Below, piece after piece: positions 5,318 through 50,330 of a DNA stretch of 64,000 nucleotides. The translations under genes were made by a program, and so were the position numbers. Origin of the DNA: Anaerolineales bacterium (GTDB lineage Bacteria; Chloroflexota; Anaerolineae; Anaerolineales; UBA6663); NCBI GenBank assembly GCA_034434015.1, contig DAOUAB010000229.1:1-64000 (forward strand). The letters run 5' to 3'. The notes below the pieces were generated by a model that saw nothing but the letters and a program-made list of their open reading frames with translations, made no database searches and was not told the DNA's origin. How positions within the stretch are numbered: position 1 is the first letter of the stretch; every line of letters begins with the position of its first letter.

Positions 5318-5339
5318 GAGTATACGTTCAGGTATTTCT

Positions 5340-9912: not shown

Positions 9913-9947
9913 AGAAGACTGACCCTCTAGCATAAAAAGGACGGCAA

Positions 9948-32822: not shown

Positions 32823-33581
32823 TCAGCCCTTGCTGTTGCCTTCCACGCCGGGCCTGTTGCCCGATGCGCCGAGAGGCACAGGCTGCATCAGTTGCGCCGT
32901 CTTGGGCCGGTCGTGCCCATTCGATTCGGCGCGCACGACCCGCCCATGTTCGAGCGTGATCAGCCGATCCGCCAGGCGACCCACGCGGGCGTCGTGGGTG
33001 ACGATGACCAGCGTATGCCCCTGCGCATGCAAGCGGCGAAAAATGTCCAAGACGATCTCCTCGTTAGCCGCGTCGAGATTGCCGGTCGGCTCATCGGCCA
33101 GGATAATCTTGGGCTGGTTGATGAGCGCACGGGCAATGCACACGCGCTGCTGCTCCCCACCGGAAAGTTGCGCGGGCAAATGATGCAGACGCTGGCCCAG
33201 CCCCACCGCCTCGAGCGCGGCGCGCGCCTCGGCCTCGTCGGCCAGGCTATGAAAGTATTGTGCCAGCATCACGTTCTCCAGCGCCGTGAGGTACGGGATC
33301 AGGTAGAACTGCTGGAAAACTAACCCGATCATCTCGCGCCGGAAGTGGGTGAGCGCCTTGGACAGCAGCGTCGTGACCTCTACCCCGTCCACGCGCAACT
33401 GCCCGGCAGTCGGCCGGTCGAGGCCGCCCAGGATGTTCAACAGGGTCGTCTTGCCCGAACCGGATGGCCCCATCACGCTGACCCACTCGCCGCGGGCCAC
33501 TTCCAGGTCCACCCCATCCAGGGCCTTCACCTCGCCGTAGACCCGCGCAAGTTTGATTGCCTGCACAACGCTATCAGTCAT
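32823..33581 (-). CDS. ABC transporter ATP-binding protein (LolD/MacB-type)
   Basis: Walker A GPSGSGKTT, signature LSGGEQQRV, Walker B ILADEPTGNLD. Confidence 0.9.
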   Translation of the reverse strand: MTDSVVQAIKLARVYGEVKALDGVDLEVARGEWVSVMGPSGSGKTTLLNILGGLDRPTAGQLRVDGVEVTTLLSKALTHFRREMIGLVFQQFYLIPYLTALENVMLAQYFHSLADEAEARAALEAVGLGQRLHHLPAQLSGGEQQRVCIARALINQPKIILADEPTGNLDAANEEIVLDIFRRLHAQGHTLVIVTHDARVGRLADRLITLEHGRVVRAESNGHDRPKTAQLMQPVPLGASGNRPGVEGNSKG

Positions 33582-34738
33582 TATTCGCCTCGCAATGTCC
33601 TGACGGGATCAATCTGCAATGCGCGCTTCACCGGGAGAAGCCCGGCCACCAGCGTGACGATCAGCCCCACGAGCAGCGTGCCCGGAAATGCCCAGGCCGT
33701 GGGCATGATGATCGCCTCGAAGACCTGTTGCCCGATGAGGAGGGCCAGACCCACGCCGGCCAGATATCCCACGGCTCCTCCGATCGCGCCGACGCACAAC
33801 GCTTCAGCCAGGAACAAGCCGGCCACCCGCCGGTCGGCGGCGCCCAGCGCCTTCATCAAGCCAATCTCCGTTCGCCGTTCGATCACCAGCGTGTTGAGCG
33901 TCCCGGCCACGGTCAGCGCGCCGGCGATCAGCACCAACGCCGCTACCAGACCGATGAGCAGGCGCACCTTATCCAGCACCGTCGCCTCGGCCTGGGCGAA
34001 CTGCGCCAGGGTCCGCACTTCCGCGTCGGGCAGGAGGGTCTGGATTTCCTGTGCCACGGCCTCCAGCGGCCGGCCGGAGGTCAGTGCGCTGACCATGACC
34101 AGCCCAACCTGTCCAGACTGATCGGTGAGCGATTGGACCATGGGAAGATCGGCGACGAATTGATCGTCCTCCGCGCCGCCCGTTTCGAGCAGACCCACGA
34201 GGCGCATCGTTCGCGCTTCACGTCCATAGCCGACCGTGATCACTCCGCCCGGCTCGAGACCCATCGCGGCCGCGGCTCGCCCGCCGATGAGAACCTCATC
34301 CTTTACTTCAGGCCACCGCCCCTGCACCTGCCACCACGCGTTGAGCGCGCGAGCGGCCATCAGGTCAACACCCGCAAGGACGGCCGGACGCCCCTCGACC
34401 TCCACCACCGCGTGCAGGTATGGAACCAGGCCGACCACGCCTTCGACTCGTTTGACCGATTCGAGATCCGATTCGCGGATCGTCGCCGGGGCTGAAACCG
34501 CCCCAAAGTCCAGCTCACCGCTGCCGACGCGCAACGACGGCCCGCGTGGGCGAATGACGAGATTCGCTCCGTAGGCGCGCAGCTCGCGCCCGACCTGCCC
34601 GCCGATGTCGCCGGACAGGTTCAGCAGCCCTGAGACGAGCGCACTGCCCAGCGCCATCGCCAGCGCCGCGATGCTCAGGCGCGCGCGTTGATGCCGAAGC
34701 GAGCCGGAAAGAATTCGCCATGCAAAGTGCATACTCAT
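33581..34738 (-). CDS. ABC transporter permease, FtsX/MacB family
   Basis: Start MSMHFAWRIL; one N-terminal TM, large periplasmic domain, three C-terminal TM (MKALGAADRRVAGLFLAEAL). Track ORF has a spurious 169-aa N-terminal extension. Confidence 0.8.
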   Translation of the reverse strand: MSMHFAWRILSGSLRHQRARLSIAALAMALGSALVSGLLNLSGDIGGQVGRELRAYGANLVIRPRGPSLRVGSGELDFGAVSAPATIRESDLESVKRVEGVVGLVPYLHAVVEVEGRPAVLAGVDLMAARALNAWWQVQGRWPEVKDEVLIGGRAAAAMGLEPGGVITVGYGREARTMRLVGLLETGGAEDDQFVADLPMVQSLTDQSGQVGLVMVSALTSGRPLEAVAQEIQTLLPDAEVRTLAQFAQAEATVLDKVRLLIGLVAALVLIAGALTVAGTLNTLVIERRTEIGLMKALGAADRRVAGLFLAEALCVGAIGGAVGYLAGVGLALLIGQQVFEAIIMPTAWAFPGTLLVGLIVTLVAGLLPVKRALQIDPVRTLRGE

Positions 34739-36069
34739 TTCCCTCGCAACAACAACACCGGATCGAAGCGCACGGCTTGGCGCACCGGCAGAGCGCTGCC
34801 CAATAAGGCCACGGCCAGCGCCAGGAGCAGCGTGATCGGCAGGACGACGGGCGCGCTTTGCGCGTCCCCGCCGACCGAAAACACCGTGCGGACCAGCCCC
34901 TGCGCCAGCCCCAGGCCGAGCAGGTAGCCCGCCGCGCCGCCGGCCAACCCGATCAGCGCCGCTTCGCTGAGGAAGATGAGGGCGATGTGGCCGTCGTCCG
35001 CGCCGAGGGCTTTCATCAGCCCGATCTCGGCCCGGCGCTCCATCACCGAAGCCGTCATCACCGTCATCACCGCCAGCGCCGAGCCGCTCAGCGCCGCGAT
35101 CGCGAGCAGCGTCATCAGCAGGCCGATCTTGCCGAGGAAATCTACCTCGGCCTGGCTGATCTGGCGGATCGGGCGCACATCGGCGTCTGGCAGAACTTCC
35201 TTGATTTGTGTGAGCACCGCGCCCATGATCGGCGAGCAGTACCACGTCGCGTACTGTTCGGGCGTCATCTCGGCGGGATCGAGGCCGCGCAGGTCAGGGC
35301 GCAGATTTGCGTCCGGCTCGACCAGCGCGCTGATCTGCACGCGATCCGCGCCCTGCGAGAGGTTCAGGAGCGCCTGCGCCGCCGGGAGGGCGACGAAGAC
35401 CTGATCTTCCTCGTAGCCACCGGTGCTGACGAGGCCGATGATCCGGAAGCGGGCGGCCCGGTCCTCGACCGTGAGCGCGATCTGGTCTCCGACCTGCCAG
35501 CCCATCCGCCGGGCCAGCCCCGCCCCAACCATCGCCGATCCCTGATCGTCGTCCTGCAACCAATCGCCCTGCACCTGCCACCACGGCGCGATGGTCTTGA
35601 CGCCCGTGCGGAAGGTGGCCTCGTCAGACGCGCCCTCTGTCTTGGCAAAGCCAGTGCGGATGGCGGCGCCTTTGGGCAGAGTGAGGGGCTTGTCGAACCA
35701 CGTCCCGGTGACGGCCACGGTCTGACCGTTCACCTGGGCGAGGGCAGTGAGGTACGGCGCAAAGCCCACGATGTTGTGCCGCCAGAAGATGGTCTTCAAC
35801 TTCACCAATTCGTTTTCGTCCAGCAGCACTCGCTCGCCCGACACCCGCAGCGGCACCCCACCGATCTCTAGTCTCAGATCGCCATTGGCGGGCGAGGCGA
35901 GGATGTTCGCCCCGTACGCGCGCAGTTCGCGGCCCATCTGGCCGGTGATGTCGAGCGAGATGCCCAGCAGCGCAGCGGCCAGCGAGGCGCCGGTGGTCAC
36001 GGCCAGCATGGCGACAAGCAGGCGGCGGGTTCGGCGGCGCAGTGTGTCTTTGAGAAGGCGCAGCAGCAT
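34735..36069 (-). CDS. ABC transporter permease, FtsX/MacB family (second)
   Basis: Start MLLRLLKDTL; same topology; MKALGADDGHIALIFLSEAAL; stop overlaps downstream start (ATGA). Confidence 0.8.
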   Translation of the reverse strand: MLLRLLKDTLRRRTRRLLVAMLAVTTGASLAAALLGISLDITGQMGRELRAYGANILASPANGDLRLEIGGVPLRVSGERVLLDENELVKLKTIFWRHNIVGFAPYLTALAQVNGQTVAVTGTWFDKPLTLPKGAAIRTGFAKTEGASDEATFRTGVKTIAPWWQVQGDWLQDDDQGSAMVGAGLARRMGWQVGDQIALTVEDRAARFRIIGLVSTGGYEEDQVFVALPAAQALLNLSQGADRVQISALVEPDANLRPDLRGLDPAEMTPEQYATWYCSPIMGAVLTQIKEVLPDADVRPIRQISQAEVDFLGKIGLLMTLLAIAALSGSALAVMTVMTASVMERRAEIGLMKALGADDGHIALIFLSEAALIGLAGGAAGYLLGLGLAQGLVRTVFSVGGDAQSAPVVLPITLLLALAVALLGSALPVRQAVRFDPVLLLRGK

Positions 36070-36076
36070 AGGACGC

Positions 36077-37366
36077 TCACCTCGCCGCGAAGACGGTCTG
36101 CGCGCCCTCGAGGTCGGCGGCGGCAATCAGCACCTCGCCCCCGGCCAGAGAAGCCGTCAGTGGGACCGGGTTGCACCCACCCGGCATGCCCACAGTTTCC
36201 ATATTGATCGGGGCATTGCAGTTGTCGCAGATCAGCGTCCCACCCTCCTGATGGTAACCGCGCGGGGGGCAGATGCCGCAGGCGTTGAGCGCCACCGCGA
36301 TGTCGTCCTCGTCGCGCTTGATGACCATGAAGGTCACATCCACCTCGGTGCCTTGATAGAAATACAGGTTGAGCTGGCCGGGGATGAGGGCCTCCACGGG
36401 GATATGCACCATCCCGTCATCGCGTACCGCTACGGCCTGAGGATCGGGCCGGTAGGCGGCCCGGCCCATCGCATAGGCGGCCGTGCCCAGCGGCAGCACC
36501 GTCGCCAGCGTCACGCTCACGAGCGCCGCCTGCCAGTTCCGCGAGCGATAGAGCGTGGCCAGGCGCTTGCGCCGCTCCGGTCCAGTTTCATCCGGGAGCG
36601 CGGCCAGCGCCGCCGGGCGCAGGCGCATCTCGGGCAGCATGGTGAGCACGGGCAAGGCCACCAATGCGATGAGGATCAGCGTGGAGGTGCTGTCTTTGAC
36701 GATGAAGCCGATCACGGCCAGGAGCGCGGGCGTGCTCGGCAGCAGCCCGACCTCGAAGAATTCGTGCAGGCTTCCGGCGGCCAGCCGCACGACGAGCACC
36801 ATCAGCACAAAACCGGTAACGGCGAAGAAGCGGCGCAGGTTGATCCGCAGGCTGCCCTTCACGAACATGACGCCAAACAACCCGGCCAGCCCCAACCCGG
36901 TCAGCCCGCCGATCAGGCCCACCAGGTCAGGCGTCTCTGCCAGCGAGAGCGCGGCCAGAAAGAGGATCATCTCCACGCCCTCGCGGAAGACCATGAAGAA
37001 GACAAAGGCCAGCAGGCCCCAGCCTTGCCGTCTGGTCTGGCCGGTTGGCGCCGTGAGCGAGTCCAGCCGCCCCTCGATGTGCTGTTTGAGTCCCCGCGCA
37101 GCGCGCCACATCCACACGACCAGGCTGAACACGAGCACGGCGGCGACGGCCAGCAACGTGCCTTCCAGGACTTCGTTCTCCGGGTCAAACCCGGCCAGGT
37201 TGAAACCGGCCGCGCCCAGGAGGCTGGCGGCGGCCGCCAGGCCCAGCCCGGCATACACCCAGCGGCGCAACCCGGTCCGCCCGGTACGGCTGAGGTAAGT
37301 GAGGATGAGGCCGACCACGAGGGCGGCCTCCATTCCCTCGCGCAAGGTGATGACAAAGGCTTCCAT
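36077..37366 (-). CDS. FTR1-family high-affinity iron permease fused to C-terminal DUF2318-like Cys-rich domain
   Basis: Two REGxE motifs (LREGMEAALV, FREGVEMILF) in TM1/TM4; C-terminal CGICPPRGYH...CDNCNAP zinc-ribbon-like segment. Confidence 0.8.
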   Translation of the reverse strand: MEAFVITLREGMEAALVVGLILTYLSRTGRTGLRRWVYAGLGLAAAASLLGAAGFNLAGFDPENEVLEGTLLAVAAVLVFSLVVWMWRAARGLKQHIEGRLDSLTAPTGQTRRQGWGLLAFVFFMVFREGVEMILFLAALSLAETPDLVGLIGGLTGLGLAGLFGVMFVKGSLRINLRRFFAVTGFVLMVLVVRLAAGSLHEFFEVGLLPSTPALLAVIGFIVKDSTSTLILIALVALPVLTMLPEMRLRPAALAALPDETGPERRKRLATLYRSRNWQAALVSVTLATVLPLGTAAYAMGRAAYRPDPQAVAVRDDGMVHIPVEALIPGQLNLYFYQGTEVDVTFMVIKRDEDDIAVALNACGICPPRGYHQEGGTLICDNCNAPINMETVGMPGGCNPVPLTASLAGGEVLIAAADLEGAQTVFAAR

Positions 37367-37375
37367 CAGGATCCC

Positions 37376-37825
37376 CTATTCCTTTGCGGCTTGACGTTTC
37401 GCCGCGCAGGTCTGACAGTATCCTTCCAGGCAGATACAGGCGTGTGAGACTTCTAACCCCAATTCCTGCTGCAATTCAGCGCGCATCTGTTTCACGCGCG
37501 GGCTTTGGAATTCAACGACCTTGCGGCAGCCCAGGCAGGTGAAGTGATAGTGTTCGGGCGCGCCCACGGGTTCGTAGTGCTCGCGGGCATGATCTCGGGC
37601 CAGATAACGCTGCTCGATCAAGCCCATGTCTTTGAGGACCGTGAGGGTGCGATAGACCGTAGCCAGGCTGATGCTGGGGTCGTTCTGCCGCGCCCGCTGA
37701 TAGATGGCCTCGGCGTCCAGGTGCTCGCCGCTGGTTTCGACCACCTCCAGCACGATCTGGCGCTGGGGCGTGATGCGGTGACCGGTGGCGCGTAGGGTGG
37801 CAAGCGTTTCGGCGTGAGTGGTCAT
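37376..37825 (-). CDS. fur: Fur-family ferric uptake regulator
   Basis: HRITPQRQIVLEVV DNA-binding helix; HxH and CxxC ... CxxC metal sites (HYHFTCLGC ... CICLEGYCQTC); start MTTHAE chosen by homology. Confidence 0.85.
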   Translation of the reverse strand: MTTHAETLATLRATGHRITPQRQIVLEVVETSGEHLDAEAIYQRARQNDPSISLATVYRTLTVLKDMGLIEQRYLARDHAREHYEPVGAPEHYHFTCLGCRKVVEFQSPRVKQMRAELQQELGLEVSHACICLEGYCQTCAAKRQAAKE

Positions 37826-37858
37826 GGGAGACCGTCCGTTGGGTTGTTGCTGTTGCAA

Positions 37859-37941
37859 GTCATTCTCATTAGCGATGATAGGCAGAGGCACCCTGCTCAT
37901 CATGTGGATAATGTCACCCTGAAAACAGAATAAGTGTCACC
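37859..37941 (-). promoter_or_regulatory. Candidate Fur boxes in the fur-ftr operon promoter
   Basis: AT-rich islands in a GC-rich context. rc of 37859-37882 gives ...TAATGAGAATGAC, 10/12 to the GATAATGATAATCATTATC consensus half; a second site TGGATAATGTCACC...GAATAAGTGTCACC at 37905-37941. Confidence 0.4.
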
Positions 37942-38115
37942 GGCTAGAGCGGACAAGGCCGACCAAGATACTCATATTAGTGGATGGAATGATGGTTGGT
38001 GCTTGAGTGGTGTCAAGGGTCCGGTATACGCCAATCTCAAATCAGTCTCACAGCTTCTACACAATCTCCCGCTAGACTGCCGCCAGAAACTCGAGAACAG
38101 CCCTGGAGGTAGATC

Positions 38116-38754
38116 ATGCGCAAAATACTTTCCGTTGGTCTTGTGGCAGCGTTGGCCCTCGTGCTGACTGGCGCGTTCTTTTTTGCCGGGGTGGCCCTGG
38201 CCCAATCGCGTGGATCGGTCGCAGTCCCAACCCCCATGTCACCCGGCGCGTATATCAACCCCAATCCCGGCAACACAGGGGGTGATCCGTGGGGTTGGGG
38301 GTCGAGATCAGGGATGCGCTGGGGCGGGCCGGGGATGATGAACGGCTGTTGTGGCAATGGCAGCTGGCGTGAAGATTGGGGCGGTTGGGGGATGGGCTCG
38401 ATGCGAATGGGCATGATGCCGATGCATGGGTACTGGGGCCGTTCGACCGCCATCACGTCAACAGTTCCCGCACCGACTACCACATCGGTTTCATTCCAGA
38501 AAGACATTCAACCGATCTTCGAGGCGCGGTGTGTGGCCTGTCACGGCGGCGCGCGCGGCCTGTACCTGACCGACTACGACAGCGTGCTGCGTGGCAGTAC
38601 GAATGGGCCGGTCATCCTTCCGGGTGACCCGGTTGGCAGTCGCCTGATTCAGTATGTCGCCAGCGGCTATATGCCCTATGGCGGCCCGTCGCTGACCCAG
38701 GCGCAGATTCAGACACTCGTGAACTGGGTGGCAGCCGGCGCGCCCAACAACTGA
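38116..38754 (+). CDS. Secreted Met/Gly-rich protein with C-terminal cytochrome c (PSCyt1-like CxxCH) domain
   Basis: Signal peptide; GMRWGGPGMMNGCCGNGSW...GMGSMRMGMMPMHGYWG; CVACHGG haem motif. Confidence 0.7.
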   Translation: MRKILSVGLVAALALVLTGAFFFAGVALAQSRGSVAVPTPMSPGAYINPNPGNTGGDPWGWGSRSGMRWGGPGMMNGCCGNGSWREDWGGWGMGSMRMGMMPMHGYWGRSTAITSTVPAPTTTSVSFQKDIQPIFEARCVACHGGARGLYLTDYDSVLRGSTNGPVILPGDPVGSRLIQYVASGYMPYGGPSLTQAQIQTLVNWVAAGAPNN

Positions 38755-38769
38755 AACGGAATAAGCGCG

Positions 38770-39732
38770 ATGAACCGCACCACTATCTTCAGAGTGTTGG
38801 GCTTTGTCGTTGGCGGCGTCGTGCTGGCGTCTGCCGGGTTAGCGTCGGGGATGGCGTTAGCTCCAGCGAGGCGGGCGGCTATTGTGGTCGAGCCGTTGTC
38901 CACAGCCTCACCGTTGACCAGCGCCGATTTGCCATCTCAAACCACCACACTGTTGCCGCTGGCTGCGGACAATGGCCCGATTGCCCCCAGCTCTGCGACG
39001 CCGCCGCAACCTGACGGATGGCCGGGTGGCTACGGCGGCTGGACCGGCAGCATGGGAAACAGGGGTTGGGACGACTGGGAGATGAGGCCTGGCATGTCCC
39101 CACAGTACAACGCTGCGCCCGGTTATAGTATGCCCGGTGCGATGAATGGGAACTGGGGGATGCGGGGCGGCATGATGAACGATGGTTGGGGGATGGGCGG
39201 ATATAGAGGGAACAATAGCTATCGTGACCACTCTCAGACGCTTCCCAGCACGGCTCAGCCCATCGCTTCTCTGGACGCCGCCGCGCAAGCCGTGCGGGCT
39301 TATCTGGTCGCGTTCAACAACCCCGATCTGTCGCTGGCCGAAGTGATCCGGTTTGGCGATGGATACTATGCACGCGTTCGCGAGCAGAGCACCGGCCGCC
39401 ACGCATTTGCCCTGATGGTTGACCCGGCCACCGGACAGGTCTGGCCCGAGCCGGGCCCCAACGTCAGTTGGAACTCTCGTTATGGTCAGGGAGCAGCCAG
39501 GGAGATGACCGTTACGGCTGAGCAGGCGAGACAAATCGCCCAGGCTTCGCTCGACCTCAATGTGCCCGGCGCGACGGCTGGCGACCCGCTGACCTTCTAC
39601 GGCTACTACACTTTCGATGTCTGGCAGGCCGATCAGATCATCGGGATGGTCAGCGTCAGCGGCCTAACGGGCGAGGTCTGGTATCACAAACAATACGGCC
39701 CCTACATAGATCAGCTAATTCTTATACCGTAG
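38770..39732 (+). CDS. Secreted Gly/Met/Trp-rich protein with C-terminal PepSY-like domain
   Basis: Signal peptide; GWPGGYGGWTGSMGNRGWDDWEMRPGM...NWGMRGGMMNDGWGMGGY; C-terminal YGYYTFDV...GEVWYH. Confidence 0.55.
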   Translation: MNRTTIFRVLGFVVGGVVLASAGLASGMALAPARRAAIVVEPLSTASPLTSADLPSQTTTLLPLAADNGPIAPSSATPPQPDGWPGGYGGWTGSMGNRGWDDWEMRPGMSPQYNAAPGYSMPGAMNGNWGMRGGMMNDGWGMGGYRGNNSYRDHSQTLPSTAQPIASLDAAAQAVRAYLVAFNNPDLSLAEVIRFGDGYYARVREQSTGRHAFALMVDPATGQVWPEPGPNVSWNSRYGQGAAREMTVTAEQARQIAQASLDLNVPGATAGDPLTFYGYYTFDVWQADQIIGMVSVSGLTGEVWYHKQYGPYIDQLILIP

Positions 39733-39764
39733 GTCGAACGAAAACTTACCTCGGAGAATAGATC

Positions 39765-40187
39765 ATGAAAAACATGAACTGGACGCGTGGGCTGGTGATT
39801 GGTGGGATAACCCTGCTGGCGCTCGCGCTCGGGGCGAATCTGCTGGTCCCCCTGCTCTGGGGACGAGCAGGCGGCTGGGGCTATAATGGCTGCGGCTGGA
39901 ATGGCCTGGGGATGACCCTGGTGCCCGGAGCAGGTCTGGGCGGCTGGGGCGGCCCTGGCATGATGGGCATCAACCCCGTTGGCTGGATCGGCATGATCCT
40001 CATGGGGCTGTTCCCACTGGGCCTGCTCGTGGTGCTCGTCGCCGGCGGCGTGTGGCGGGTGCAGGCTCTGACGCGCAACACTGTCCCGCTCACCGCCGCC
40101 GGACCGTCACGCGCCTGTCCCAATTGCGGCCAGCCAGCCCAGACGGATTGGCGCAACTGTCCGCACTGCGGCGCGCAGCTTGCCTGA
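39765..40187 (+). CDS. Hypothetical membrane protein, Gly-rich segment plus C-terminal zinc ribbon (CPNCG...CPHCG)
   Basis: Two TM; C-terminal paired CxxC. Confidence 0.5.
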   Translation: MKNMNWTRGLVIGGITLLALALGANLLVPLLWGRAGGWGYNGCGWNGLGMTLVPGAGLGGWGGPGMMGINPVGWIGMILMGLFPLGLLVVLVAGGVWRVQALTRNTVPLTAAGPSRACPNCGQPAQTDWRNCPHCGAQLA

Positions 40188-40251
40188 TCCGATCATTCAG
40201 ACGTGGGGCGTTCGCACAGCGTGCGACGCCCCTGCGTTGCGTTATACGGCC

Positions 40252-40938
40252 GTGGCGAAGAAGATTCTGATCATCGAAGATGAAGCGAAGATCATGCGTA
40301 CCGTGCGGCTCTATCTGGAGCAGGCCGGATATAGCGTCGTGTGGGCCACCGATGGCGCACAAGGGCTGGCCGCCTTCCGCCATGAGAAGCCGGCGCTGGT
40401 ATTGCTCGACCTGAACCTGCCGGGTGAGCAGGATGGTCTGGATGTGTGCCGGACACTTCGGCGCGACTCCAACGTGCCCATCATCATGCTCACCGCCCGG
40501 AGCGAAGAAGTGGACCGGCTCATTGGACTCGAACTGGGCGCCGACGACTACATCCCCAAGCCGTTCTCGCCGCGCGAAGTCGTGGCCCGGGTGCGCGCCG
40601 TTCTGCGCCGCGCCGAACAACCCGGGGCGCCCCCAGAGTTCATCGAAGCCTCTGATATCCGCCTAGACCTTCAACGGCACACCGTCACCGTTTCCGGCAA
40701 ACCGGTCGAGTTGACCCCCAACGAGTTCGATCTGCTGGTGGCCTTCGTGCGCTATCCGGGACGAGTCTATACGCGTGCCCAACTGCTCGAACAAGCGCAG
40801 GGGCCAACGTATGAAGGCTATGAGCGCACCATTGACCAGCACGTGAAGAATCTGCGGCAGAAGATCGAACCCGATCCACGCGAGCCGCGCTACCTTCTTA
40901 CCGTGTATGGCGTCGGCTACAAGTTTGCGGAGGCGTGA
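40252..40938 (+). CDS. OmpR-family response regulator
   Basis: GTG start chosen; receiver (LLDLNLPGEQDG) plus winged-helix output domain. Confidence 0.85.
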   Translation: MAKKILIIEDEAKIMRTVRLYLEQAGYSVVWATDGAQGLAAFRHEKPALVLLDLNLPGEQDGLDVCRTLRRDSNVPIIMLTARSEEVDRLIGLELGADDYIPKPFSPREVVARVRAVLRRAEQPGAPPEFIEASDIRLDLQRHTVTVSGKPVELTPNEFDLLVAFVRYPGRVYTRAQLLEQAQGPTYEGYERTIDQHVKNLRQKIEPDPREPRYLLTVYGVGYKFAEA

Positions 40939-42419
40939 GGATGACGCGCAGTTTGTGGATCAAGCTGATGGGGGCGTTTGCGCTGGTCATCGTCGTCGGT
41001 ACCGGCATGGTCGTCTTCCTGGTCAGCCGGGCGACGACCGGGCAGTTTGAGTTGTACGTGACCCAGAGCGGACGTCAGTGGGCGGCCTGGCTGGCCCCGG
41101 CGCTGGCCGGCTACTACGCGCGTTCCGGTTCGTGGAGTGGCGTTGAAACGGTTTTGCAGAATCCGTGGGCGGCTGGCGGCACAGGCGGAGAGGGCTGGAT
41201 GGGGGACATGATGGGGGACGGCATGGACATGATGGAAGGCATGGGGGGATGGTGGAATGAGCCCGGCATGATGAGCGATAACATGTGGGCCGCCTCCGGC
41301 AACCGGTTGATTCTTACCGACGCCGAGGCGTTGGTGGTGGCGGACACGGCCGGGGCGCTGGTCGGAACCCGTTTGCCGGCCGACGACGTTGCGCGGGGGA
41401 TGCCGATCACGGTCGAGCAACGGCGCGTCGGCACGTTGATCGTCACGCCGTTCGACGCGCCCGCCACACCGGCCGGTGATTTTCTTGGCGCAGTCAATCG
41501 CTCCGTATTGTGGGCCGGCCTGGCGGCGGGCGGTGTCGCGCTGGTAATGGGATCTATTCTCTTCTTTCAGATCATCCGACCTTTGCGCAGTCTGTCCGCC
41601 GCCGCGCGTGGCATTACCCAGGGTGATCTGAGTCGGCGCGCGTGGGTCGGCGACAAAGACGAGGTCGGGCAGGTCGCCCTCACCTTCAACCAGATGGCCG
41701 AGACCCTGCAAGGCTACGCCGTCGAGCGCCGCAACATGATCGCCGACATTGCCCACGAACTGCGCACCCCGCTGTCGGTGATGCAGAGCAACCTGGAGGC
41801 GATGCTCGACGGCGTGCTGCCGGCCAGTTCAGAAGAGTTGGCCTCCCTCCACCAGGAAGCCTTGCTCCTCAACCGGCTGATCGGCGACCTGCGCACGCTG
41901 TCCCTGGCGGAGGCCAGGCAGCTGCGCTTGGAAAAGCGCCCGGTGGATGTGGGCGCGCTGGTTCAGCAGGTGACAGATCGATTGCGTCTGCGCGCCGGCG
42001 AGAAGGGCATCACGCTGGCGACCGAGGTAGCGCCGGGACTACCCGAAATCCAGGCCGATCCTGAGCGGCTGGCACAGGCCCTGGGCAACCTGGTGGACAA
42101 CGCGCTGCGCTACACGCGGGCGGGCACCTGCGTCGCTGTCGAGGCCCGGCCTGCGCCCGGCGGCGTCGAGCTGGCCGTCCGTGACGAAGGACCAGGCCTT
42201 CTGGCGGAGGATCTCCCCCACGTCTTCAACCGATTCTGGCGGGCTGAGAAGTCGCGAAACCGGGCGACGGGCGGCTCCGGCCTGGGTCTCGCCATTGTCC
42301 GGCAGCTTGCCGAGGCGCACGGGGGCCAGGCAATGGTGGAGAGCCCAACGGCCCACCCGACCGGCCCAGCCCGCGGCGCACGCTTCTCACTGCGCCTGCC
42401 GGCTGGGCGGAGCGCCTGA
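40935..42419 (+). CDS. Sensor histidine kinase with Met/Gly-rich periplasmic loop
   Basis: Periplasmic GEGWMGDMMGDGMDMMEGMGGWWNEPGMMSDNMW; HAMP; H-box HELRTPLSVMQSNLE; HATPase_c. Confidence 0.9.
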   Translation: MRMTRSLWIKLMGAFALVIVVGTGMVVFLVSRATTGQFELYVTQSGRQWAAWLAPALAGYYARSGSWSGVETVLQNPWAAGGTGGEGWMGDMMGDGMDMMEGMGGWWNEPGMMSDNMWAASGNRLILTDAEALVVADTAGALVGTRLPADDVARGMPITVEQRRVGTLIVTPFDAPATPAGDFLGAVNRSVLWAGLAAGGVALVMGSILFFQIIRPLRSLSAAARGITQGDLSRRAWVGDKDEVGQVALTFNQMAETLQGYAVERRNMIADIAHELRTPLSVMQSNLEAMLDGVLPASSEELASLHQEALLLNRLIGDLRTLSLAEARQLRLEKRPVDVGALVQQVTDRLRLRAGEKGITLATEVAPGLPEIQADPERLAQALGNLVDNALRYTRAGTCVAVEARPAPGGVELAVRDEGPGLLAEDLPHVFNRFWRAEKSRNRATGGSGLGLAIVRQLAEAHGGQAMVESPTAHPTGPARGARFSLRLPAGRSA

Positions 42420-42484
42420 AGCCGCCTGGCCGTATCAAAACCGGCGTTTCCCCCGTTAATCACGGCGGTAGAAAGGTCAACCAC

Positions 42485-43039
42485 TTGGATTCCTGCGAAT
42501 CCGATCTCATTCAGCGCGCCCGGCACGGTGATCCGGACGCACTGGTCGCGCTTTACGAACGCCATCAACCATCGGTGTTCACCTATGTCTATTACCGCGT
42601 GGGCGATCAGGTCGCAGCGGAGGACCTGACCGCTGAAGTATTCGCACGCATGGTCAAGAAGGTGGGGGACTATACCGACTGTGGCCGTCCGATCCTGGCC
42701 TGGCTGTATACCATCGCCCGCAATCTGATCGCGGACCACTACCGCGTCCGGAACGCGGTTGCGCCCGTGCCGCTAGAAGAAGCCCTGGTCGCCGGCGAGA
42801 CCGGACATCCCGCCATTGTGGCCGAGTATCACCTGGCGCAGGAGTGCCTGGCGAAGGCGCTGCGCTGGCTGACTGAGGAGCAGCGTCAATTGATCATGCT
42901 CCGCTTCGTCGAGGACCGTGAGGTCGAGGAAGTCGCCGCCATTATGGGGAAGAATGAGCGCGCCATTCGCTCCCTTCAACATCGGGCACTGGCCGCCCTC
43001 CACCGCGCCGTCGTGAAGGAAGGTTGCTATGAGCCCTGA
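42485..43039 (+). CDS. ECF (sigma-70 family) RNA polymerase sigma factor
   Basis: Region 2 (LVALYERHQPSVFTYVYYRV) and region 4 HTH (EVAAIMGKNERAIRSLQHRA). Confidence 0.85.
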   Translation: MDSCESDLIQRARHGDPDALVALYERHQPSVFTYVYYRVGDQVAAEDLTAEVFARMVKKVGDYTDCGRPILAWLYTIARNLIADHYRVRNAVAPVPLEEALVAGETGHPAIVAEYHLAQECLAKALRWLTEEQRQLIMLRFVEDREVEEVAAIMGKNERAIRSLQHRALAALHRAVVKEGCYEP

Positions 43040-44201
43040 CTTCGATCTGGTTCTGGACGAGTGCCTGGGCCGGCTGCGCGCCGGGGAAAGCGGCGAGGCC
43101 TGCCTGGCCCATCACCCCGCCGAGGCGGGACGACTGCGCCCGCTCCTTTCCACGGCTACCTGGGTGCGGCGCTTGCCCGCCCCTCGCTCCAGCCCGGAGG
43201 CGCTCATCGCCGGGCGGGAACGCCTGCTGGCGGCTGCGCGCGTTTACCAGCCCCCTGAAGCAGGGGTGGTTCGTCCCGTATCATCCGAGCTCCTTTCCCG
43301 TTATTCAGTGCGGATTGTCACCGCACTGCGCGATCTGTTGATCGGAAAGGAGACCAGAGGAATGAAACTCGTATTGCGCGTGGCGCTTAACTTGATGGTA
43401 GTCATCGTCGTCACAAGCGTTCTGACCATCACCGCCTCAGCCAATAGCCTGCCGGGCGACGCCCTGTATGGCGTCAAGCGTACCTGGGAGGAGGTGCGCC
43501 TGGGTCTGACACTTGATCCACAGGCTCGCAGCGCTATCGAGCGCCAGTACGCGGCGGAACGGCAGGAAGAGATTCGCACGCTTGTGGGCCTCGGCCGTGA
43601 AGTGGCCCTTGAGTTGGAGGGACGCCTGGAAGCGCTGGAGCCAGGGCGGTGGATCGTGAGCGGACTGGCCCTGCAGGTGAACGACCAGACGGTGGTCGAA
43701 GGCACACCGACTGTGGGGCTGATTGTCCAAGCGCATGTCCGCGTGCAGGGCAATGGCGGGCTGCTGGCCCTGCGGTTGAAGGTGATGACCCATACGGGCG
43801 CGCCGATTGTCCCAGTGCCGGAGCGCTCTTCCACGCCGCGCGGCGCGTCCAGCCCGGCCAATCATGGGAACGCGCCGACTGACGACACACCGTGGCCGAC
43901 ACCCGAGATGAGCCATACGCCGCAGCACAGGGCGCAACCGACAGCCGAGCACACGCAAATGCCGGGCCATACGCCGGAGCATACACCCTGGGCAACACCC
44001 ATCTCGACCCATACACCGGAGTACATGCCGCCAGCCCACACCCCCGAGCACACACCCTGGGCAACGCAAATGCCAGAGCACACCCCGGACCACGATCCCG
44101 AGCATAAGCTTTTGCCTTCAGCCACGCAGATGTCTGTCCACTCCCCAGAGCATCCCCCGGAGCACATGCCCGGCGCGACCGAGCCGCACGACGGGCCGTG
44201 A
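43029..44201 (+). CDS. Putative anti-sigma factor with extracytoplasmic domain and C-terminal His-Pro-Glu tandem repeats
   Basis: Overlaps the sigma stop; N-terminal zinc-anti-sigma-like region (CLAHHP); single TM; C-terminal repeats HTPEHTPWAT x several. Confidence 0.6.
   Translation: MSPDFDLVLDECLGRLRAGESGEACLAHHPAEAGRLRPLLSTATWVRRLPAPRSSPEALIAGRERLLAAARVYQPPEAGVVRPVSSELLSRYSVRIVTALRDLLIGKETRGMKLVLRVALNLMVVIVVTSVLTITASANSLPGDALYGVKRTWEEVRLGLTLDPQARSAIERQYAAERQEEIRTLVGLGREVALELEGRLEALEPGRWIVSGLALQVNDQTVVEGTPTVGLIVQAHVRVQGNGGLLALRLKVMTHTGAPIVPVPERSSTPRGASSPANHGNAPTDDTPWPTPEMSHTPQHRAQPTAEHTQMPGHTPEHTPWATPISTHTPEYMPPAHTPEHTPWATQMPEHTPDHDPEHKLLPSATQMSVHSPEHPPEHMPGATEPHDGP
43900..44180 (+). repeat. 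Imperfect in-frame tandem repeats encoding (H-T/M-P-E-H) units
   Basis: Repeated cacacc-ggag-cac / ccctgggcaac units visible in DNA. Confidence 0.45.
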
Positions 44202-44349
44202 CTCTTGATCGGCATCTGGTCATCTTTATCGGCGCCACATGGCGCCGATAGTGTTTAACGGCTGATTGGCGTGGGTGGCCTCTGTACAATACTCGTCAGC
44301 CATGCTAATATATCATCAATCTCTGATGCAATGATATAAGGAGCGCCAG

Positions 44350-44772
44350 ATGTTGTTGACGGCAGATAAGACGGGTCTGGAAGTCAAGGCCAAACTCTTT
44401 CGGGGGTTCGGAGATCCCTCGCGCCTGGGCATCCTGGATGCCCTGCGCAGCGGGCCGCTGACCGTGAGCGAGATCGTCGAGGCCACCGGCCTCTCCCAAT
44501 CCAATGTCTCTAATCACCTGGGCTGTCTGCGCGACTGTGGGCTGGTGATAGCTGAACAAGAGGGCCGCTACGTCACTTACCATCTGAGCGATGACCGCGT
44601 GGGTGAACTATTGGCTCTGACCGAGTCGCTCCTGGCGGATGTGGCGCGCGGTGTCTACGAATGCACCCGCTACAACATCCGGGCTGCGGAATCTCAGCCG
44701 ACCCAGGCATCCAGAGTTCATACGGGTCGGCGGATCCCGCGCCGGGCACTTCGCGGACGGGCACGCGCCTGA
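44350..44772 (+). CDS. ArsR/SmtB-family metal sensor, CmtR-like (CLRDCGLV alpha4 Cys pair plus C-terminal Cys)
   Basis: [33 protein letters not shown]; C-terminal YECTRY. Confidence 0.85.
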   Translation: MLLTADKTGLEVKAKLFRGFGDPSRLGILDALRSGPLTVSEIVEATGLSQSNVSNHLGCLRDCGLVIAEQEGRYVTYHLSDDRVGELLALTESLLADVARGVYECTRYNIRAAESQPTQASRVHTGRRIPRRALRGRARA

Positions 44773-44794: not shown

Positions 44795-45550
44795 ATGAGC
44801 ACTCCGCTTGAGATGTCACCGTCCCGCCGCAACGCCATTGTCGCCAACCGGCTGGTGTTAGGGCTCAGCCGCAATTGGGTGGCAACCTTTATCACGTTCT
44901 TCGGGATATTTATCACCCTCCCGTGGCTGGCGCCGGTATTCATGAAGGTGGGCGCAACCGGCCTGGCGCGCGCGATCTACTTCATTTATTCCTTCGAGTG
45001 TCACCAACTGCCTGAGCGAGCCTACTACTTATTCGGCATGAAATCCATGTACTCGCTGGCCGAGATTCAGGCAGCCTGGCAGCCAACCAATAATCCCCTC
45101 CTCCTGCGCCAGTTCATCGGCAATCAGCAGTTAGGTTACAAGGTGGCGTGGTGTGACCGGACGACTGCGATGTATGGCGCGATTTGGCTCCTGATACTCG
45201 TCTGGCGGCCTTTGAGCAAACGGCTGCGCCCGCTGCCGCTGTGGGCTTTTGCCCTGCTCACCTTCCCCATTGCCATAGACGGCGGCACCCACTTTATTAG
45301 TGACCTGATGGGACTTGGAGTTGGGTTCCGCGAAACGAACGTCTGGCTGGCGGCGCTGACGGCGAATGCCTTTCCGCTTTGGTTTTATGCTACCGACGTC
45401 ATCGGCTCGTTCAATTGGTGGATGCGGTTGCTGACCGGCTTCCTGTTCGGCCTTGGCCTGGTCTGGCTGGCCTACCCTCAAGCCGAAATCTTCTTTGCTG
45501 AAGCGGCGGCCCGGATCGACATGAAGTTGCGGATGGCAGGCGTGCGTTGA
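44795..45550 (+). CDS. DUF2085-family membrane protein
   Basis: FECHQLPERAYYLFG motif; multiple TM; immediately downstream of the CmtR-like gene. Confidence 0.6.
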   Translation: MSTPLEMSPSRRNAIVANRLVLGLSRNWVATFITFFGIFITLPWLAPVFMKVGATGLARAIYFIYSFECHQLPERAYYLFGMKSMYSLAEIQAAWQPTNNPLLLRQFIGNQQLGYKVAWCDRTTAMYGAIWLLILVWRPLSKRLRPLPLWAFALLTFPIAIDGGTHFISDLMGLGVGFRETNVWLAALTANAFPLWFYATDVIGSFNWWMRLLTGFLFGLGLVWLAYPQAEIFFAEAAARIDMKLRMAGVR

Positions 45551-45613
45551 GGATCGTGCGTAGGCCTTTTTATTTTGGTGCGTTATATCATCATTTGATA
45601 ATGTGATAACTCG

Positions 45614-46126
45614 ATGTTGGCAGGCATGGTAATGGATAGAAAACTCAAAGCCGTTTCAGGAGTGTTACTGGGACTGCTGCTGGCGTTGGTCGCGGACAGC
45701 GTGTCCAAACTCTGGGCGGAGCAAACGCTTCGCCTTCATCGGCCTGTGCCGATATTGGGTGACATGTTCCGTCTCACGCTTAGCTATAACACCGGCGTGG
45801 CATTCGGGCTGTTTGCCAACGGCGGCATCTGGCCGCTCGTCATCACCGGCCTCATCATCATTGGCCTGGCGGTCTGGCTGGTGAACACCCTCCGCAGCGG
45901 CGAACAGACTCGTGCGGCGGCCTGGCCCATCGGGCTGATTCTCGGCGGGGCGATTGCCAACTTCGCCGACCGCCTGCCGGATGGCCGCGTCACCGATTTC
46001 CTCGACCTGGGCCTCGGCACGGCCCGCTGGCCGACTTTCAACCTGGCGGACAGTTTCATCGTGCTGGGTCTGATCCTTCTGCTCATAGCTGGACGCATTC
46101 CGAAAGCTTCGCCAGACAGCGAATAA
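45614..46126 (+). CDS. lspA: Lipoprotein signal peptidase II
   Basis: NTGVAFG and FNLADSFIV catalytic-Asp motifs; 4 TM. Confidence 0.85.
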   Translation: MLAGMVMDRKLKAVSGVLLGLLLALVADSVSKLWAEQTLRLHRPVPILGDMFRLTLSYNTGVAFGLFANGGIWPLVITGLIIIGLAVWLVNTLRSGEQTRAAAWPIGLILGGAIANFADRLPDGRVTDFLDLGLGTARWPTFNLADSFIVLGLILLLIAGRIPKASPDSE

Positions 46127-46581
46127 TGCCTGCAATGAATTGGCGACCGCACCGGTTCACCGTGATCTCGTTTGCTCTATTGCTGCTAGATCAGGCTTTT
46201 GACCTGGTCGTGGAATTTGCCCTGCCGGAAGGCGCGTCCCGCCTGTTCATTCTCGGACGGATGGGGATCACACGGCCCGTCAGCCCTGGCAGTGCGATGC
46301 TTGATACCGCCTCCTTTTTTGTTGTGTTGACGATTATCGGTGTGCCCTTCTTGTGGTGGTACAAGCGCCACATTGTCCCCGACGCCCTCTATCGTACCGC
46401 AGTGGCAGTTTTTCTCGGGGGACTGCTGGGCAACCTGGCCGATGGCTGGCGAGTCGGCCATCCGGTCGATTACCTGCGTGCCGGTGTCCCCTTTAATCTG
46501 GCCGACGTGGCCCTGGTGATGGGAGCAGTCTTGCTGTTCTATCGGATGTTGAGGCCACTCCGAGGGTTACAGGGGGGGTGA
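46126..46581 (+). CDS. Signal peptidase II paralog
   Basis: GNLADG and FNLADVALV motifs; start overlaps the upstream stop. Confidence 0.65.
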   Translation: MPAMNWRPHRFTVISFALLLLDQAFDLVVEFALPEGASRLFILGRMGITRPVSPGSAMLDTASFFVVLTIIGVPFLWWYKRHIVPDALYRTAVAVFLGGLLGNLADGWRVGHPVDYLRAGVPFNLADVALVMGAVLLFYRMLRPLRGLQGG

Positions 46582-46588
46582 AGAGACC

Positions 46589-47215
46589 ATGTTCCTGAGA
46601 AGCATGGTTCTGCTCCTGCTTGCACTGGTGGCCGTCAATCTGTGGTGGCGCTGGGCGAGCCGTCGCCGCTCGCTCCCCTGCCCCACATGGCTGGCTGGGT
46701 TTGTGGATGGCCCTGTGATGGATAGAGTCCTGGGCACGCAGACTACCCTGGATCGCATTGGGCTGCGACCTGGCTATCGGGTGCTCGAAATAGGGCCGGG
46801 GCCCGGTCGGCTGCTCATCCCGGCCGCCCGGCGTGTGCTACCCGGCGGCGAAGTCGTCGGCCTGGATATCCAGCCGGGGATGATTGAACGGCTCAAAGCG
46901 CGGGCGGCGCAGGCCGGTGCGTCGAACCTGACGACGAGTGTGGGCGATGCGACGCAACCGCATTTTCCACCAGATAGTTTTGACGTGATTTATTTCTGCA
47001 CGGTACTGGGCGAAATCCCGAACCGTGAAGCGGCGTTGCGGCAGTGTTATGCGGCGCTCAAATCTGGCGGCCAGCTTTCGATCACGGAAATCTTTCCCGA
47101 CCCACACTACCAATCCCGCGCGACAGTGAAACGATTGGCAGAGGCGACGGGCTTTCGACTACAAGCCATGCCCGGGCCGTGGTACTTTTTCTCGGCGAAC
47201 TTTGTGAAAGCATAG
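46589..47215 (+). CDS. Class I SAM-dependent methyltransferase (N-terminal TM)
   Basis: Motif I VLEIGPGPG; motif II/III DVIYFCTVLGEIPN. Confidence 0.8.
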   Translation: MFLRSMVLLLLALVAVNLWWRWASRRRSLPCPTWLAGFVDGPVMDRVLGTQTTLDRIGLRPGYRVLEIGPGPGRLLIPAARRVLPGGEVVGLDIQPGMIERLKARAAQAGASNLTTSVGDATQPHFPPDSFDVIYFCTVLGEIPNREAALRQCYAALKSGGQLSITEIFPDPHYQSRATVKRLAEATGFRLQAMPGPWYFFSANFVKA

Positions 47216-47241
47216 CCGGTTCGTTGGCACAGAGTCTTAGA

Positions 47242-47835
47242 ATGAGCCAAACGTTTTTCCACAGCGTCTTTGTCGTCTTCTTCACGCTGTTTGCCGCGAT
47301 CCGTGTGTATTTCCAGTGGCGCGCCCGGCTAGTGCAGGGGCAGGTTGAATACAAAGAAGGTAAGCTGAATATCGCCTTGCGCGCCCTCATTGGCGCAATA
47401 TTTTTCCTCGATGTCTTACTCTACATCGTTCGCCCGCAGGTCCTGGCGTGGGCGGAACTGCCGCTGCCGCAATGATTGCAGTGGCTGGGCGTTGTGCTGG
47501 GCATAGTCAGTCTTCCCCTCCTCGCGTGGACGCAGCAGGCCCTGGGGAGCAATTTTTCGCCGACGCTCCATGTGCGCCGGGAGCATAGGCTGGTGACCAG
47601 CGGGCCTTATCGCTACATGCGCCACCCGATGTATACGGCATTGTTTCTGTCCATGGCGGCGATTCTACTGCTGACGCGGAGCTGGCTCGTCGGCGGTGTT
47701 CCGCTCGTCGGCCTGTGTGTGATCGTGCTCCTGCGCGTCGAGCGTGAAGAGCGCGTGATGATCGGGAAATTCGGCGACGCGTATCGCGACTATATGAAAC
47801 GCACCGGACGATTTTTGCCTCGGGTGATACGTTGA
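47242..47835 (+). pseudogene. ICMT/PEMT-family methyltransferase interrupted by in-frame TGA at 47473-47475
   Basis: N-terminal TM half (MSQTFFHSVFVVFF...) and C-terminal catalytic half (GPYRYMRHPMYTALFL...EERVMIGKFGDAYRDYMKRTGRF) are in the same frame separated by a single TGA. The aligned position in paralogs is a hydrophobic residue, not Cys. No downstream hairpin seen. Confidence 0.5.
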
Positions 47836-50296: not shown

Positions 50297-50330
50297 GGAG
50301 GAAGAGTATATCAACGGGATTGAGGAGCGT

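Follow-up and report, generated by a model that had tools for sequence, protein, structure and literature searches.

A recurrent Chloroflexota operon whose sensor kinase and putative target proteins carry similar methionine-, glycine- and tryptophan-rich segments

Introduction

What does it mean when a sensor histidine kinase and the secreted proteins encoded beside it carry the same kind of low-complexity sequence? The question is raised by five consecutive genes at positions 38116–42419 of a 64-kb stretch of DNA from an Anaerolineales bacterium (contig DAOUAB010000229.1; the whole stretch is called the window below). A first-pass annotation had noted Met/Gly/Trp-rich segments in three secreted or membrane proteins, here named P1, P2 and P3, and in the extracytoplasmic loop of the kinase encoded downstream of them, and had proposed a Cu(I)/Ag(I)-responsive module. 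We find that these segments are a real, specific and conserved feature, and that P1, P3, an OmpR/PhoB-family response regulator (RR) and a sensor histidine kinase (HK) form a recurrent operon in Chloroflexota. Our preferred reading, to which we assign a probability of roughly 0.4, is an extracytoplasmic sense-and-buffer module for a soft, thioether-loving cation, most plausibly Cu(I)/Ag(I).

Identical DNA is present in several metagenome and sequencing-run assemblies, and its relatives point to Thermoflexales/Anaerolineae within the phylum Chloroflexota. All five genes lie on the plus strand with intergenic gaps of 15–65 bp; the start of RR is taken from metagenome gene calls on identical contigs. 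The features of the locus are as follows.

38047–38078, plus strand: putative operator and promoter, consisting of a direct repeat and a –10-like box; the ribosome-binding site lies further 3'
38116–38754, plus strand: P1, 212 aa; signal peptide, Met/Gly/Trp-rich segment, monoheme cytochrome c domain
38770–39732, plus strand: P2, 320 aa; transmembrane (TM) or signal anchor, Met/Gly/Trp-rich linker, tandem PepSY-like domain
39765–40187, plus strand: P3, 140 aa; TM1, Gly/Trp/Met-rich loop, TM2, zinc ribbon
40252–40938, plus strand: RR, OmpR/PhoB-family response regulator, 228 aa; the maximal open reading frame (ORF) starts at 40180
40935–42419, plus strand: HK, sensor histidine kinase, 494 aa; TM1, PDC-like domain, TM2, HAMP, HisKA, HATPase_c

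Met/Gly/Trp-rich segments are a conserved feature of the proteins

In P1 the segment occupies approximately aa 55–110, after a signal peptide at aa 1–29, and includes a CC pair. In P2 it forms the second part of a linker (approximately aa 82–150) that begins Pro/Ser-rich, and in P3 it is the extracytoplasmic loop of approximately aa 32–72 between TM1 and TM2. In HK it is an insert at aa 81–113 (nt 41175–41273) within the PDC-like domain, and includes the extracytoplasmic loop GDMMGDGMDMMEGMGGWWNEPGMM at aa 89–113. In the best 40-residue window of each protein, Met, Gly and Trp together account for 26 of 40 positions in P1, 21 in P2, 23 in P3 and 26 in HK, compared to 6 in the cytoplasmic RR. 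Among six-frame ORFs of 80 aa or more in the whole 64 kb, only HK, P1 and P2 reach at least 5 Met and at least 6 Gly within 30 residues; the P3 segment is Gly/Trp-rich with fewer Met and falls below this threshold. The segments that the first-pass annotation had described in the secreted and membrane proteins and in the kinase loop are therefore present where it had placed them.

Across homologues the segments contain 9–13.5% Met, 18–30% Gly, 4–7% Trp and 1–2% His, compared to 1.6–2.7% Met and 1–2% Trp in the remainder of the same proteins, which amounts to a 4- to 8-fold enrichment of Met in all four protein families. The repeat unit is GMMG/GWG. The character of the segments is kept in all four families, and their exact sequence is not. 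Across approximately 100 related loci, Met/Gly-rich segments are almost confined to P2, the kinase, P3, P1 and a group of small SHOCT membrane proteins; outside these families they are found only in a second cytochrome c and in a few small ORFs, and in two cases such an ORF lies immediately upstream of a CopA- or CPH-type ATPase.

Low-complexity sequence of this kind could be a meaningless product of high GC content or of replication slippage. The codons of Gly (GGN) and Trp (TGG) are GC-rich, and the sequence and length of the segments vary freely among homologues. GC bias does not explain the segments, however, because Met (ATG) is disfavored at 62–65% GC and is nevertheless enriched. DNA tandem repeats are almost lacking at the locus, with two weak two-copy arrays, and the Met/Gly/Trp bias is therefore kept at the protein level. 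The near restriction of the segments to a few families argues in the same direction, as does their presence in distant phyla and archaea. The insert is retained in 25 of 26 orthologous kinases (phmmer score of at least 300 bits); of the 15 other kinases encoded in these loci, 3 have such a segment. An origin by composition or slippage was therefore rejected: Met is enriched in spite of the GC trend, the segments are conserved throughout the families and tandem repeats are nearly absent. We regard such an origin as extremely improbable. The first-pass annotation had itself proposed that the segments might prove merely compositional and unconserved in orthologs; on the contrary, they are conserved in all four families.

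The module is a recurrent operon with a putative operator

Among the 15 contigs that extend far enough downstream of a true P1 homologue, 13 have P3-RR-HK after it. In this core operon P1 and P3 are the constant members and P2 is optional, being present within P1-type operons in the window and in two further loci (L091/L092). Around P2 itself, RR-HK stands before or after the gene in approximately 25 of 80 genomes; in the window P2 lies two genes upstream of RR on the same strand, within four genes of RR/HK. P3 homologues adjoin P2 in 14 of 80 loci and P1 in 13 of 21. ORF calling in these high-GC loci is greedy and imperfect, which makes all neighbor counts approximate. P1-P3-RR-HK is a recurrent Chloroflexota operon. 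No earlier description of the four-family operon was found in the literature searched, including under the combination of PepSY, methionine-rich and two-component system.

Upstream of P1, the direct repeat CTCACA-N4-CTACAC (38047–38062, with an 11-bp period) overlaps the –35 position and is followed by the –10-like box TAGACT (38073–38078) and the ribosome-binding site GGAGGT (38105–38110). Alignment of the P1-upstream regions of divergent loci gives a gap-free block, (T)TCACA-N4/5-CT(A/T)CAC, that ends 9 bp before a –10-like TAnnnT. The operator pattern YTYACWNNNNCTWCAY, of approximately 19 bits, has a single match in the window, also when one mismatch is tolerated. The P1-type loci (513 kb) contain 12 matches. 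All 12 are on the operon strand and a short distance upstream of the first gene, after correction of over-long ORF starts with tblastn coordinates; these matches include three loci (L091, L093 and L099) that were not used for derivation of the pattern. In 1.95 Mb of P2-type loci there are nine matches, all nine on the operon strand and located at, or at most approximately 330 bp from, the 5' end of P2 or of a SHOCT-P2 pair. Two of the P2-type loci with a match (L056 and L064) carry P2/P3/SHOCT genes and have no adjacent kinase. A generic promoter and terminator scan gave nothing above shuffled sequence, and an Rfam scan of 37300–44400 gave no match.

A tandem repeat with 11-bp spacing that overlaps the –35 element is the classic arrangement of activators of the OmpR/PhoB family. 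Because the repeat upstream of P1 has this arrangement and is conserved, RR probably controls the operon that encodes it, and P1, P2, P3 and the SHOCT proteins are its putative conserved targets. The earlier statement that a sensor and its putative targets share the same chemistry holds in this form, as we infer it from the conserved operon and the operator-like repeat.

Domain composition of P1, P2 and P3

The C-terminal domain of P1 (approximately aa 125–212) contains a single CxxCH motif, CVACH at aa 139–143, and a Met186-Pro187 pair that is invariant in 30 homologues; Met186 is the likely axial heme ligand. The Pfam PSCyt1 model scores 28.5 bits against a cut-off of 22. With the CxxCH motif, the distal Met and a profile score above cut-off, P1 carries a genuine c-type cytochrome domain, which confirms the first-pass assignment of such a domain to the end of one of the proteins. 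A search with P1 gave 62 homologue clusters, and in most of those inspected a signal peptide is followed by a Met/Gly/Trp-rich region, in many cases with CC or a single Cys, and by the heme domain. A metagenome scan with the P1 profile returned mostly unrelated giant proteins with PSCyt1 domains, and the true family members were limited to L093–L104. A second operon cytochrome c is found at L173 (10058–10567), in which the Met-rich run MMGSMQMMGGMMACVTCH abuts the heme-binding motif.

The profile of the P1 heme domain matches both heme domains of FoxE, the diheme Fe(II) oxidase of Rhodobacter ferrooxidans (PDB 5mab), with an E value of 3.9e-13. Like FoxE, P1 has CxxCH, a PGDPxxS...MP segment with the axial Met and a W..GAPN tail. 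Unlike FoxE, it has one heme domain, placed after a Met/Gly/Trp/Cys-rich segment, and is embedded in a regulatory operon. No foxY or foxZ partners (pyrroloquinoline quinone-protein and DMT-type transporter families) occur in the Pfam-annotated neighborhoods.

P2 has no match in Pfam or NCBIfam. The AlphaFold model of its tandem domain (aa 160–320, nt 39247–39732) has a mean confidence (pLDDT, predicted local distance difference test) of 92.4 and consists of two α-β4 units, for which the best fold match in the PDB is the C-terminal PepSY domains of YpeB (E value 7e-5, probability 1.0). A profile sequence search of the PDB found nothing, the match coming from the fold search alone, and the Pfam PepSY model (PF03413) matches 3 of 120 listed P2 homologues, the window copy not among them. 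On the basis of this model, the C-terminal half of P2 is predicted to have the PepSY fold. The family comprises at least 898 matches and, at 50% identity, 1735 clusters; species-representative genomes contain at least 580 P2 loci, and source annotations label the members “hypothetical protein”. It is mostly found in Chloroflexota and also in Dormibacterota, Fraserbacteria, Rubrobacter, Methanoperedens, Bathyarchaeia and Halobacteria. GMMGG-type repeats are kept family-wide in the linker that follows the membrane anchor; the loop between the two PepSY-like domains is also GMMGG-rich (EPGPNMMWNxKYGHMGGMMGG) in most members. Four archaeal P2 loci from Methanoperedens and other archaea (L029, L030, L033 and L070) have no adjacent two-component system; there, P2 is accompanied by an ArsR-type regulator, a glutaredoxin/thioredoxin-like protein and a thioredoxin-reductase-like flavoprotein.

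P2 resembles UipA of Microbacterium and lanpepsy in being a single-pass membrane or secreted protein with tandem PepSY domains; those two bind metals, namely U/Fe and lanthanides, respectively. Whereas UipA and lanpepsy bind such hard cations through acidic PepSY faces, the candidate ligands in P2 are thioethers in a disordered linker, joined in the wider P2 family by Met, His and Trp in the inter-domain loop.

P3 ends in a zinc ribbon, CPNCG...CPHCG at aa 115–140 (Pfam Zn_ribbon_3, E value 1.2e-8). From the positive-inside rule, its loop would lie outside the cell and the zinc ribbon in the cytoplasm. Homologues keep the order of a TM helix, a GWGMMGPGMMGGWG loop, a second TM helix and a zinc ribbon. 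The commonest immediate neighbors of P2 are the small SHOCT membrane proteins with Met/Gly/Trp-rich N-termini, found in 17–21 of 80 loci depending on method (L007, L036, L038, L046–L048, L056, L067, L072–L079 and L173); at L173 such a protein (9817–10032) stands in place of P3. For SHOCT in combination with copper, the literature gave one marginal match, in a silver-stress transcriptome.

Metal genes around the module

The module sits in transition-metal islands. ArsR/SmtB regulators and P1B ATPases adjoin it in 11 of approximately 14 P1-type loci with usable flanks, and within ±8 kb of canonical P2 genes in 80 loci we find eight CopA-type (CPC and MxxSS) and two CPH-type ATPases, by a rough estimate well above chance for a 16-kb neighborhood. 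Genes specific to copper are found at two loci: L173 encodes a multicopper oxidase together with a cupredoxin and a CopZ-like HMA protein, and L087 encodes a multicopper oxidase. Small GMMG-repeat ORFs lie directly upstream of a CopA-type (CPC/MxxSS) ATPase at L017 (10480–10761) and of a CPH-type ATPase at L025 (10195–10584).

In the window itself, HK is followed by an extracytoplasmic function (ECF) sigma factor, a DUF5667/DUF5666 protein, a CmtR-like ArsR, a DUF2085 protein, two LspA proteins, methyltransferases, an ATPase with an APC motif, another CmtR-like ArsR and an ATPase with a CSC motif.

42485–43039, plus strand: ECF sigma factor (Pfam)
43029–44201, plus strand: DUF5667/DUF5666 anti-sigma-like membrane protein (Pfam) with a His/Glu/Pro-rich C-terminal repeat tail
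44350–44772, 48170–50296, 50193–50684 and 50677–52791: CmtR-like ArsR and P1B ATPase sets

Both CmtR-like ArsR/SmtB proteins have a Cys-rich sensing region with CLRDCG and a C-terminal Cys, and each precedes a P1B ATPase whose TM4 motif is unusual. The APC-motif ATPase has no CxxC in its N-terminal domain, and the CSC-motif ATPase has an HMA domain with CxxC. A third ArsR with an SPC-type ATPase lies at approximately 5340–8400, and the APC/CSC/SPC trio recurs beside the module in other loci. At 44795–47835 a methyltransferase is found together with the DUF2085 protein, the two tandem LspA paralogues and an isoprenylcysteine-methyltransferase-like protein. An S-adenosylmethionine-dependent methyltransferase with weak ArsM/UbiE-like matches recurs beside the P1B ATPases of the islands (L087, 1138–1821; L175, 2338–2964; L099, 4684–6000).

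The pair of ECF sigma factor and DUF5667-DUF5666 protein also adjoins the module in L091/L092, L174 and L175. The tails of the anti-sigma-like proteins differ by locus and are all rich in metal-ligand residues. In the window the tail (approximately 43836–44198) is a His/Glu/Pro-rich repeat (HTPEHTPW...); at L091 (10229–11656) and L174 (938–2329) there are CRPVGDEHHYG repeats and a Gly/His tail; and the L175 protein (4499–5638), in which the repeats are MPMPTQWST, contains 32 Met in total.

The response regulator and the sensor kinase

RR consists of Pfam Response_reg and Trans_reg_C domains and scores below every NCBIfam equivalog cut-off, the best models being MtrA, BaeR and CreB. The best NCBIfam model for HK is BaeS_SmeS (NF012163), with 258.1 bits against a cut-off of 500; BaeS (NF007837) gives 236.7 against 603. 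Membership of HK and RR in the CusS/CopS, BaeS or HprR families was rejected, all scores lying under the curated cut-offs. In the predicted structure of HK (mean pLDDT 66.7) a long helix is followed by the insert, with pLDDT below 50, and then by a β-sheet with pLDDT of 83–91. A Foldseek search with the sensor domain gave the BaeS structures 5wvn and 5wvm with probabilities of 0.75–0.99 but E values of 0.05–0.3, WalK scoring better; these values are to be read against the modest confidence of the model. The insert is thus predicted to be disordered and to be set in a PDC-like domain similar to the sensor domains of WalK and BaeS. Homologues of HK have a Met/Gly-rich insert at the same place, with variable sequence. 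A second OmpR-type two-component system in the window (17698–19750) has a kinase without a Met-rich loop.

HK is like E. coli CusS with its partner CusR, and like the cztS/silS/copS kinases, in having a periplasm-facing PDC-like domain between two TM helices, a HAMP-HisKA-HATPase arrangement and an OmpR-family partner. CusS binds metal via structured sites in its folded sensor domain. Unlike CusS as generally described, HK carries a disordered Met/Gly loop.

The BaeS-like scores and fold matches raise a different possibility, namely a BaeS/DbfS-type sensor of envelope or membrane stress. In that case the segments would be flexible, interface-seeking loops, a kind of methionine bristle that registers membrane perturbation, hydrophobic compounds or unfolded proteins, and P2, perhaps with P3, would be a partner that sets the balance between kinase and phosphatase activity. 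Besides the BaeS and BaeR scores and the match of the sensor fold to the extracellular domains of WalK and BaeS, a composition of Met, Trp and Gly with few charges and few His or Cys would suit binding to interfaces or hydrophobic ligands, and the P3 loop lies between two TM helices. Moreover, the PepSY protein DbfQ directly controls the kinase DbfS in a system that responds to membrane integrity (PMC12714742). The BaeS score of 258 against a cut-off of 500 speaks against this explanation, and it leaves unexplained why the module lies so closely and so often beside ArsR-regulated P1B ATPases and genes for multicopper oxidase and cupredoxin, as well as the cytochrome c and the metal-ligand-rich tails of the anti-sigma-like proteins. 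We consider it possible but doubtful.

Which signal does the module respond to?

Met thioethers and cation-π contacts from Trp bind Cu(I)/Ag(I) in CusF. We favor a soft cation as the ligand because the segments offer this thioether/Trp chemistry, the operon appears to follow a self-regulated sponge logic, the module sits in metal islands and the wider P2 family is associated with CopA.

Several observations weigh against this reading. In 10.4 thousand residues of low-complexity segments the MM dipeptide occurs 348 times, compared to 109 expected (3.2-fold), whereas MxM (74 occurrences) is at 0.7-fold and MxxM (108 occurrences) at approximately 1-fold of expectation. The enrichment of MxM/MxxM spacings, usually together with His, that marks the classic motifs of CopB/PcoB (MDHxxM), CueO and Ctr1 is absent from the segments. 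The first-pass annotation had likened them to the motifs of CopB, PcoB and CueO; the Met-rich character is common to both, but with GMMG/GWG as the unit, MxM under-represented and so little His the likeness is a loose one. The window P2 and its closest relatives have lost the Met/His residues of the family's inter-domain loop (NMMW/GHM) and of its WYHTWHG motif. RR scores 156.2 bits with the cztR/silR/copR model (TIGR01387, cut-off 279.2), a model outscored by MtrA, BaeR, CreB and PhoB, and HK scores 170.4 bits with the cztS/silS/copS model (TIGR01386, cut-off 292.55) and 141.5 bits with the Cu/Ag sensor CusS model (NF007345, cut-off 423). The TM4 motifs of the P1B ATPases beside P1-type modules are CSC (seven), SPC (five) and APC (four), none of them CopA-like, and these ATPases have ArsR regulators of their own. 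There is no second copy of the operator in the 64-kb window, and hence no copy linked to a pump. Finally, FoxE is the closest solved relative of the P1 heme domain, and iron genes are immediate neighbors of the module in three independent loci (the window, L087 and L098). Cu(I)/Ag(I) is still the first candidate on chemical grounds, with the metal islands and the conserved operon in its favor and the heavy-metal family models, the GMMG motif and the type of the adjacent pumps against it.

The last two points bear on a different proposal, namely a module for extracellular Fe(II) or redox sensing similar to BqsRS, in which P1 would be a FoxE-like Fe(II)-oxidizing cytochrome that serves or protects FTR1/Feo uptake. 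In the window, the minus-strand genes at 33581–37903, divergent from P1, encode Fur, an FTR1 permease fused to an FtrD-like domain (PF10080) and two MacB_PCD/FtsX permeases, and further upstream on the identical contig L001 there are an ABC ATPase and a DsbA-like protein. This set resembles the ftr1-p19 cluster of Campylobacter, although neither a P19 nor a cupredoxin gene can be seen in it. In L087 the genes immediately upstream are DtxR-FeoAB; in L098, P1 is directly preceded on its own strand by DtxR-FTR1; and FTR1 is found near P2 in 6 of 80 loci. FeoB-like genes are also present at the end of the window (61817–64000). The neighbors also include pumps of the SPC type (P1B-4), a class capable of Fe(II)/Co(II) export. 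Iron oxidation by FoxE is described in PMC10654088, BqsS has PepSY neighbors, and the PepSY protein UipA binds Fe(III)/U. Thioether-rich loops that are poor in His, Asp and Glu would be poor iron ligands, however; the RExxE motif of BqsRS-type Fe(II) sensors does not occur in aa 31–190 of HK; the PSCyt1/FoxE-type domain is widespread in proteins unlinked to iron; and iron genes neighbor the module in only approximately 3 of 13 independent loci. We therefore think an iron or redox function unlikely.

Exposed, disordered Met-rich loops would also be ideal targets for oxidants. Oxidation of Met to the sulfoxide by HOCl, H2O2 and the like might switch the kinase, as proposed for HprS, with the Met-rich proteins serving as sacrificial antioxidant sinks. 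In E. coli, reactive chlorine species trigger HprSR, which governs the repair of periplasmic Met sulfoxide (PMC9805139, PMC9302797). Genes for thioredoxin-like AhpC/TSA proteins adjoin the module in L087 and L173, and thioredoxin reductase and glutaredoxin genes adjoin P2 in archaea. Against this, signature motifs of MsrA/MsrB are essentially absent from approximately 100 related loci, with one weak MsrB-like match; RR scores 138.1 bits with the HprR model, whose cut-off is 353; and several carriers (Dehalococcoidia, Methanoperedens, Bathyarchaeia) belong to lineages usually held to be anaerobic. Oxidant sensing appears distinctly improbable to us.

Discussion

If the module handles a soft cation, the following mechanism can be envisaged. 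The cation would bind the Met loop in the PDC-like domain of the kinase and shift HK towards kinase activity. Phosphorylated RR may then bind the 11-bp direct repeat that overlaps the –35 element of the operon, which would raise the expression of the Met-rich proteins and of the two-component system itself. The anchored Met-rich segments could sequester the cation at the cell surface, in parallel to CopM in copMRS or to PcoE/SilE. P2, and possibly P3, may feed back on the sensor domain of the kinase, as DbfQ does on DbfS, and the cytochrome P1 may alter the redox state of the bound metal. Gene order, domain content, the conservation of the segments, of the operon and of the operator-like repeat, and the metal-island context are observations; the binding of RR, the identity of the ligand, sequestration and the contact between the PepSY protein and the kinase are put forward here as proposed steps.

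By fold and gene order, the module belongs to a broad arrangement in which a PepSY protein stands beside a two-component system, neighborhoods of this kind being more than 60-fold enriched (PMC12714742). As in V. cholerae DbfQRS and P. aeruginosa BqsPQRS, the gene for a secreted PepSY protein stands immediately upstream of those for an OmpR-type response regulator and a HAMP kinase whose extracytoplasmic sensor domain is small, and the operon is apparently under its own regulator. Here, unlike in those systems, the PepSY domains are in tandem on a membrane anchor with a long Met/Gly/Trp-rich linker, the kinase has a Met-rich insert, and the conserved core includes a cytochrome c and a zinc-ribbon membrane protein, with the PepSY protein P2 optional.

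In its logic the module is similar to copMRS, in which a Cu-binding protein is co-transcribed with its Cu-responsive two-component system (PMC4335983). The combination of a sensor and a sponge, with a Met-containing extracytoplasmic protein from the same operon, is common to the module, to copMRS of Synechocystis and to PcoE/SilE under PcoRS/SilRS. Unlike in those systems, the operator is not found at any RND efflux operon or other pump, and the kinase lies outside the CopS/CusS family by curated cut-offs. None of the proteins is related in sequence to CopM, PcoE or SilE. By the features tested, the module falls outside the CusS/CopS, BaeS, HprSR, BqsRS and foxEYZ families. What is new is the four-family operon, the disordered Met/Gly/Trp segment common to the sensor and its putative targets, the constant partnership with a FoxE-type cytochrome and a zinc-ribbon protein, and the putative operator.

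A bolder idea is that the disordered segment itself is the recognition element common to the kinase and the regulon proteins (P1, P2, P3 and SHOCT), which might co-assemble at the membrane surface, perhaps bridged by the ligand. We give this idea a low probability. Were the segment a signaling element of this kind, it would represent an undescribed mode of extracytoplasmic sensing, and the non-kinase parts, the P2 family and the SHOCT proteins, are common to Chloroflexota, other phyla and archaea such as Methanoperedens and Bathyarchaeia.

If the sense-and-buffer reading is correct, it would give a function to large families that are now labeled hypothetical, with approximately 1,700 clusters at 50% identity for P2 in at least 580 species genomes of bacteria and archaea. 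It would define a Chloroflexota-specific type of metal- or stress-sensing two-component system together with its operator, and it would provide a tractable sensor whose disordered, thioether-rich ligand-binding loop is also carried by the proteins that it induces. Possible uses include metal-binding tags rich in Met, or parts for biosensors, that would function at high temperature. The module would also bear on how copper, silver and other soft metals are handled at the cell surface outside the E. coli paradigms.

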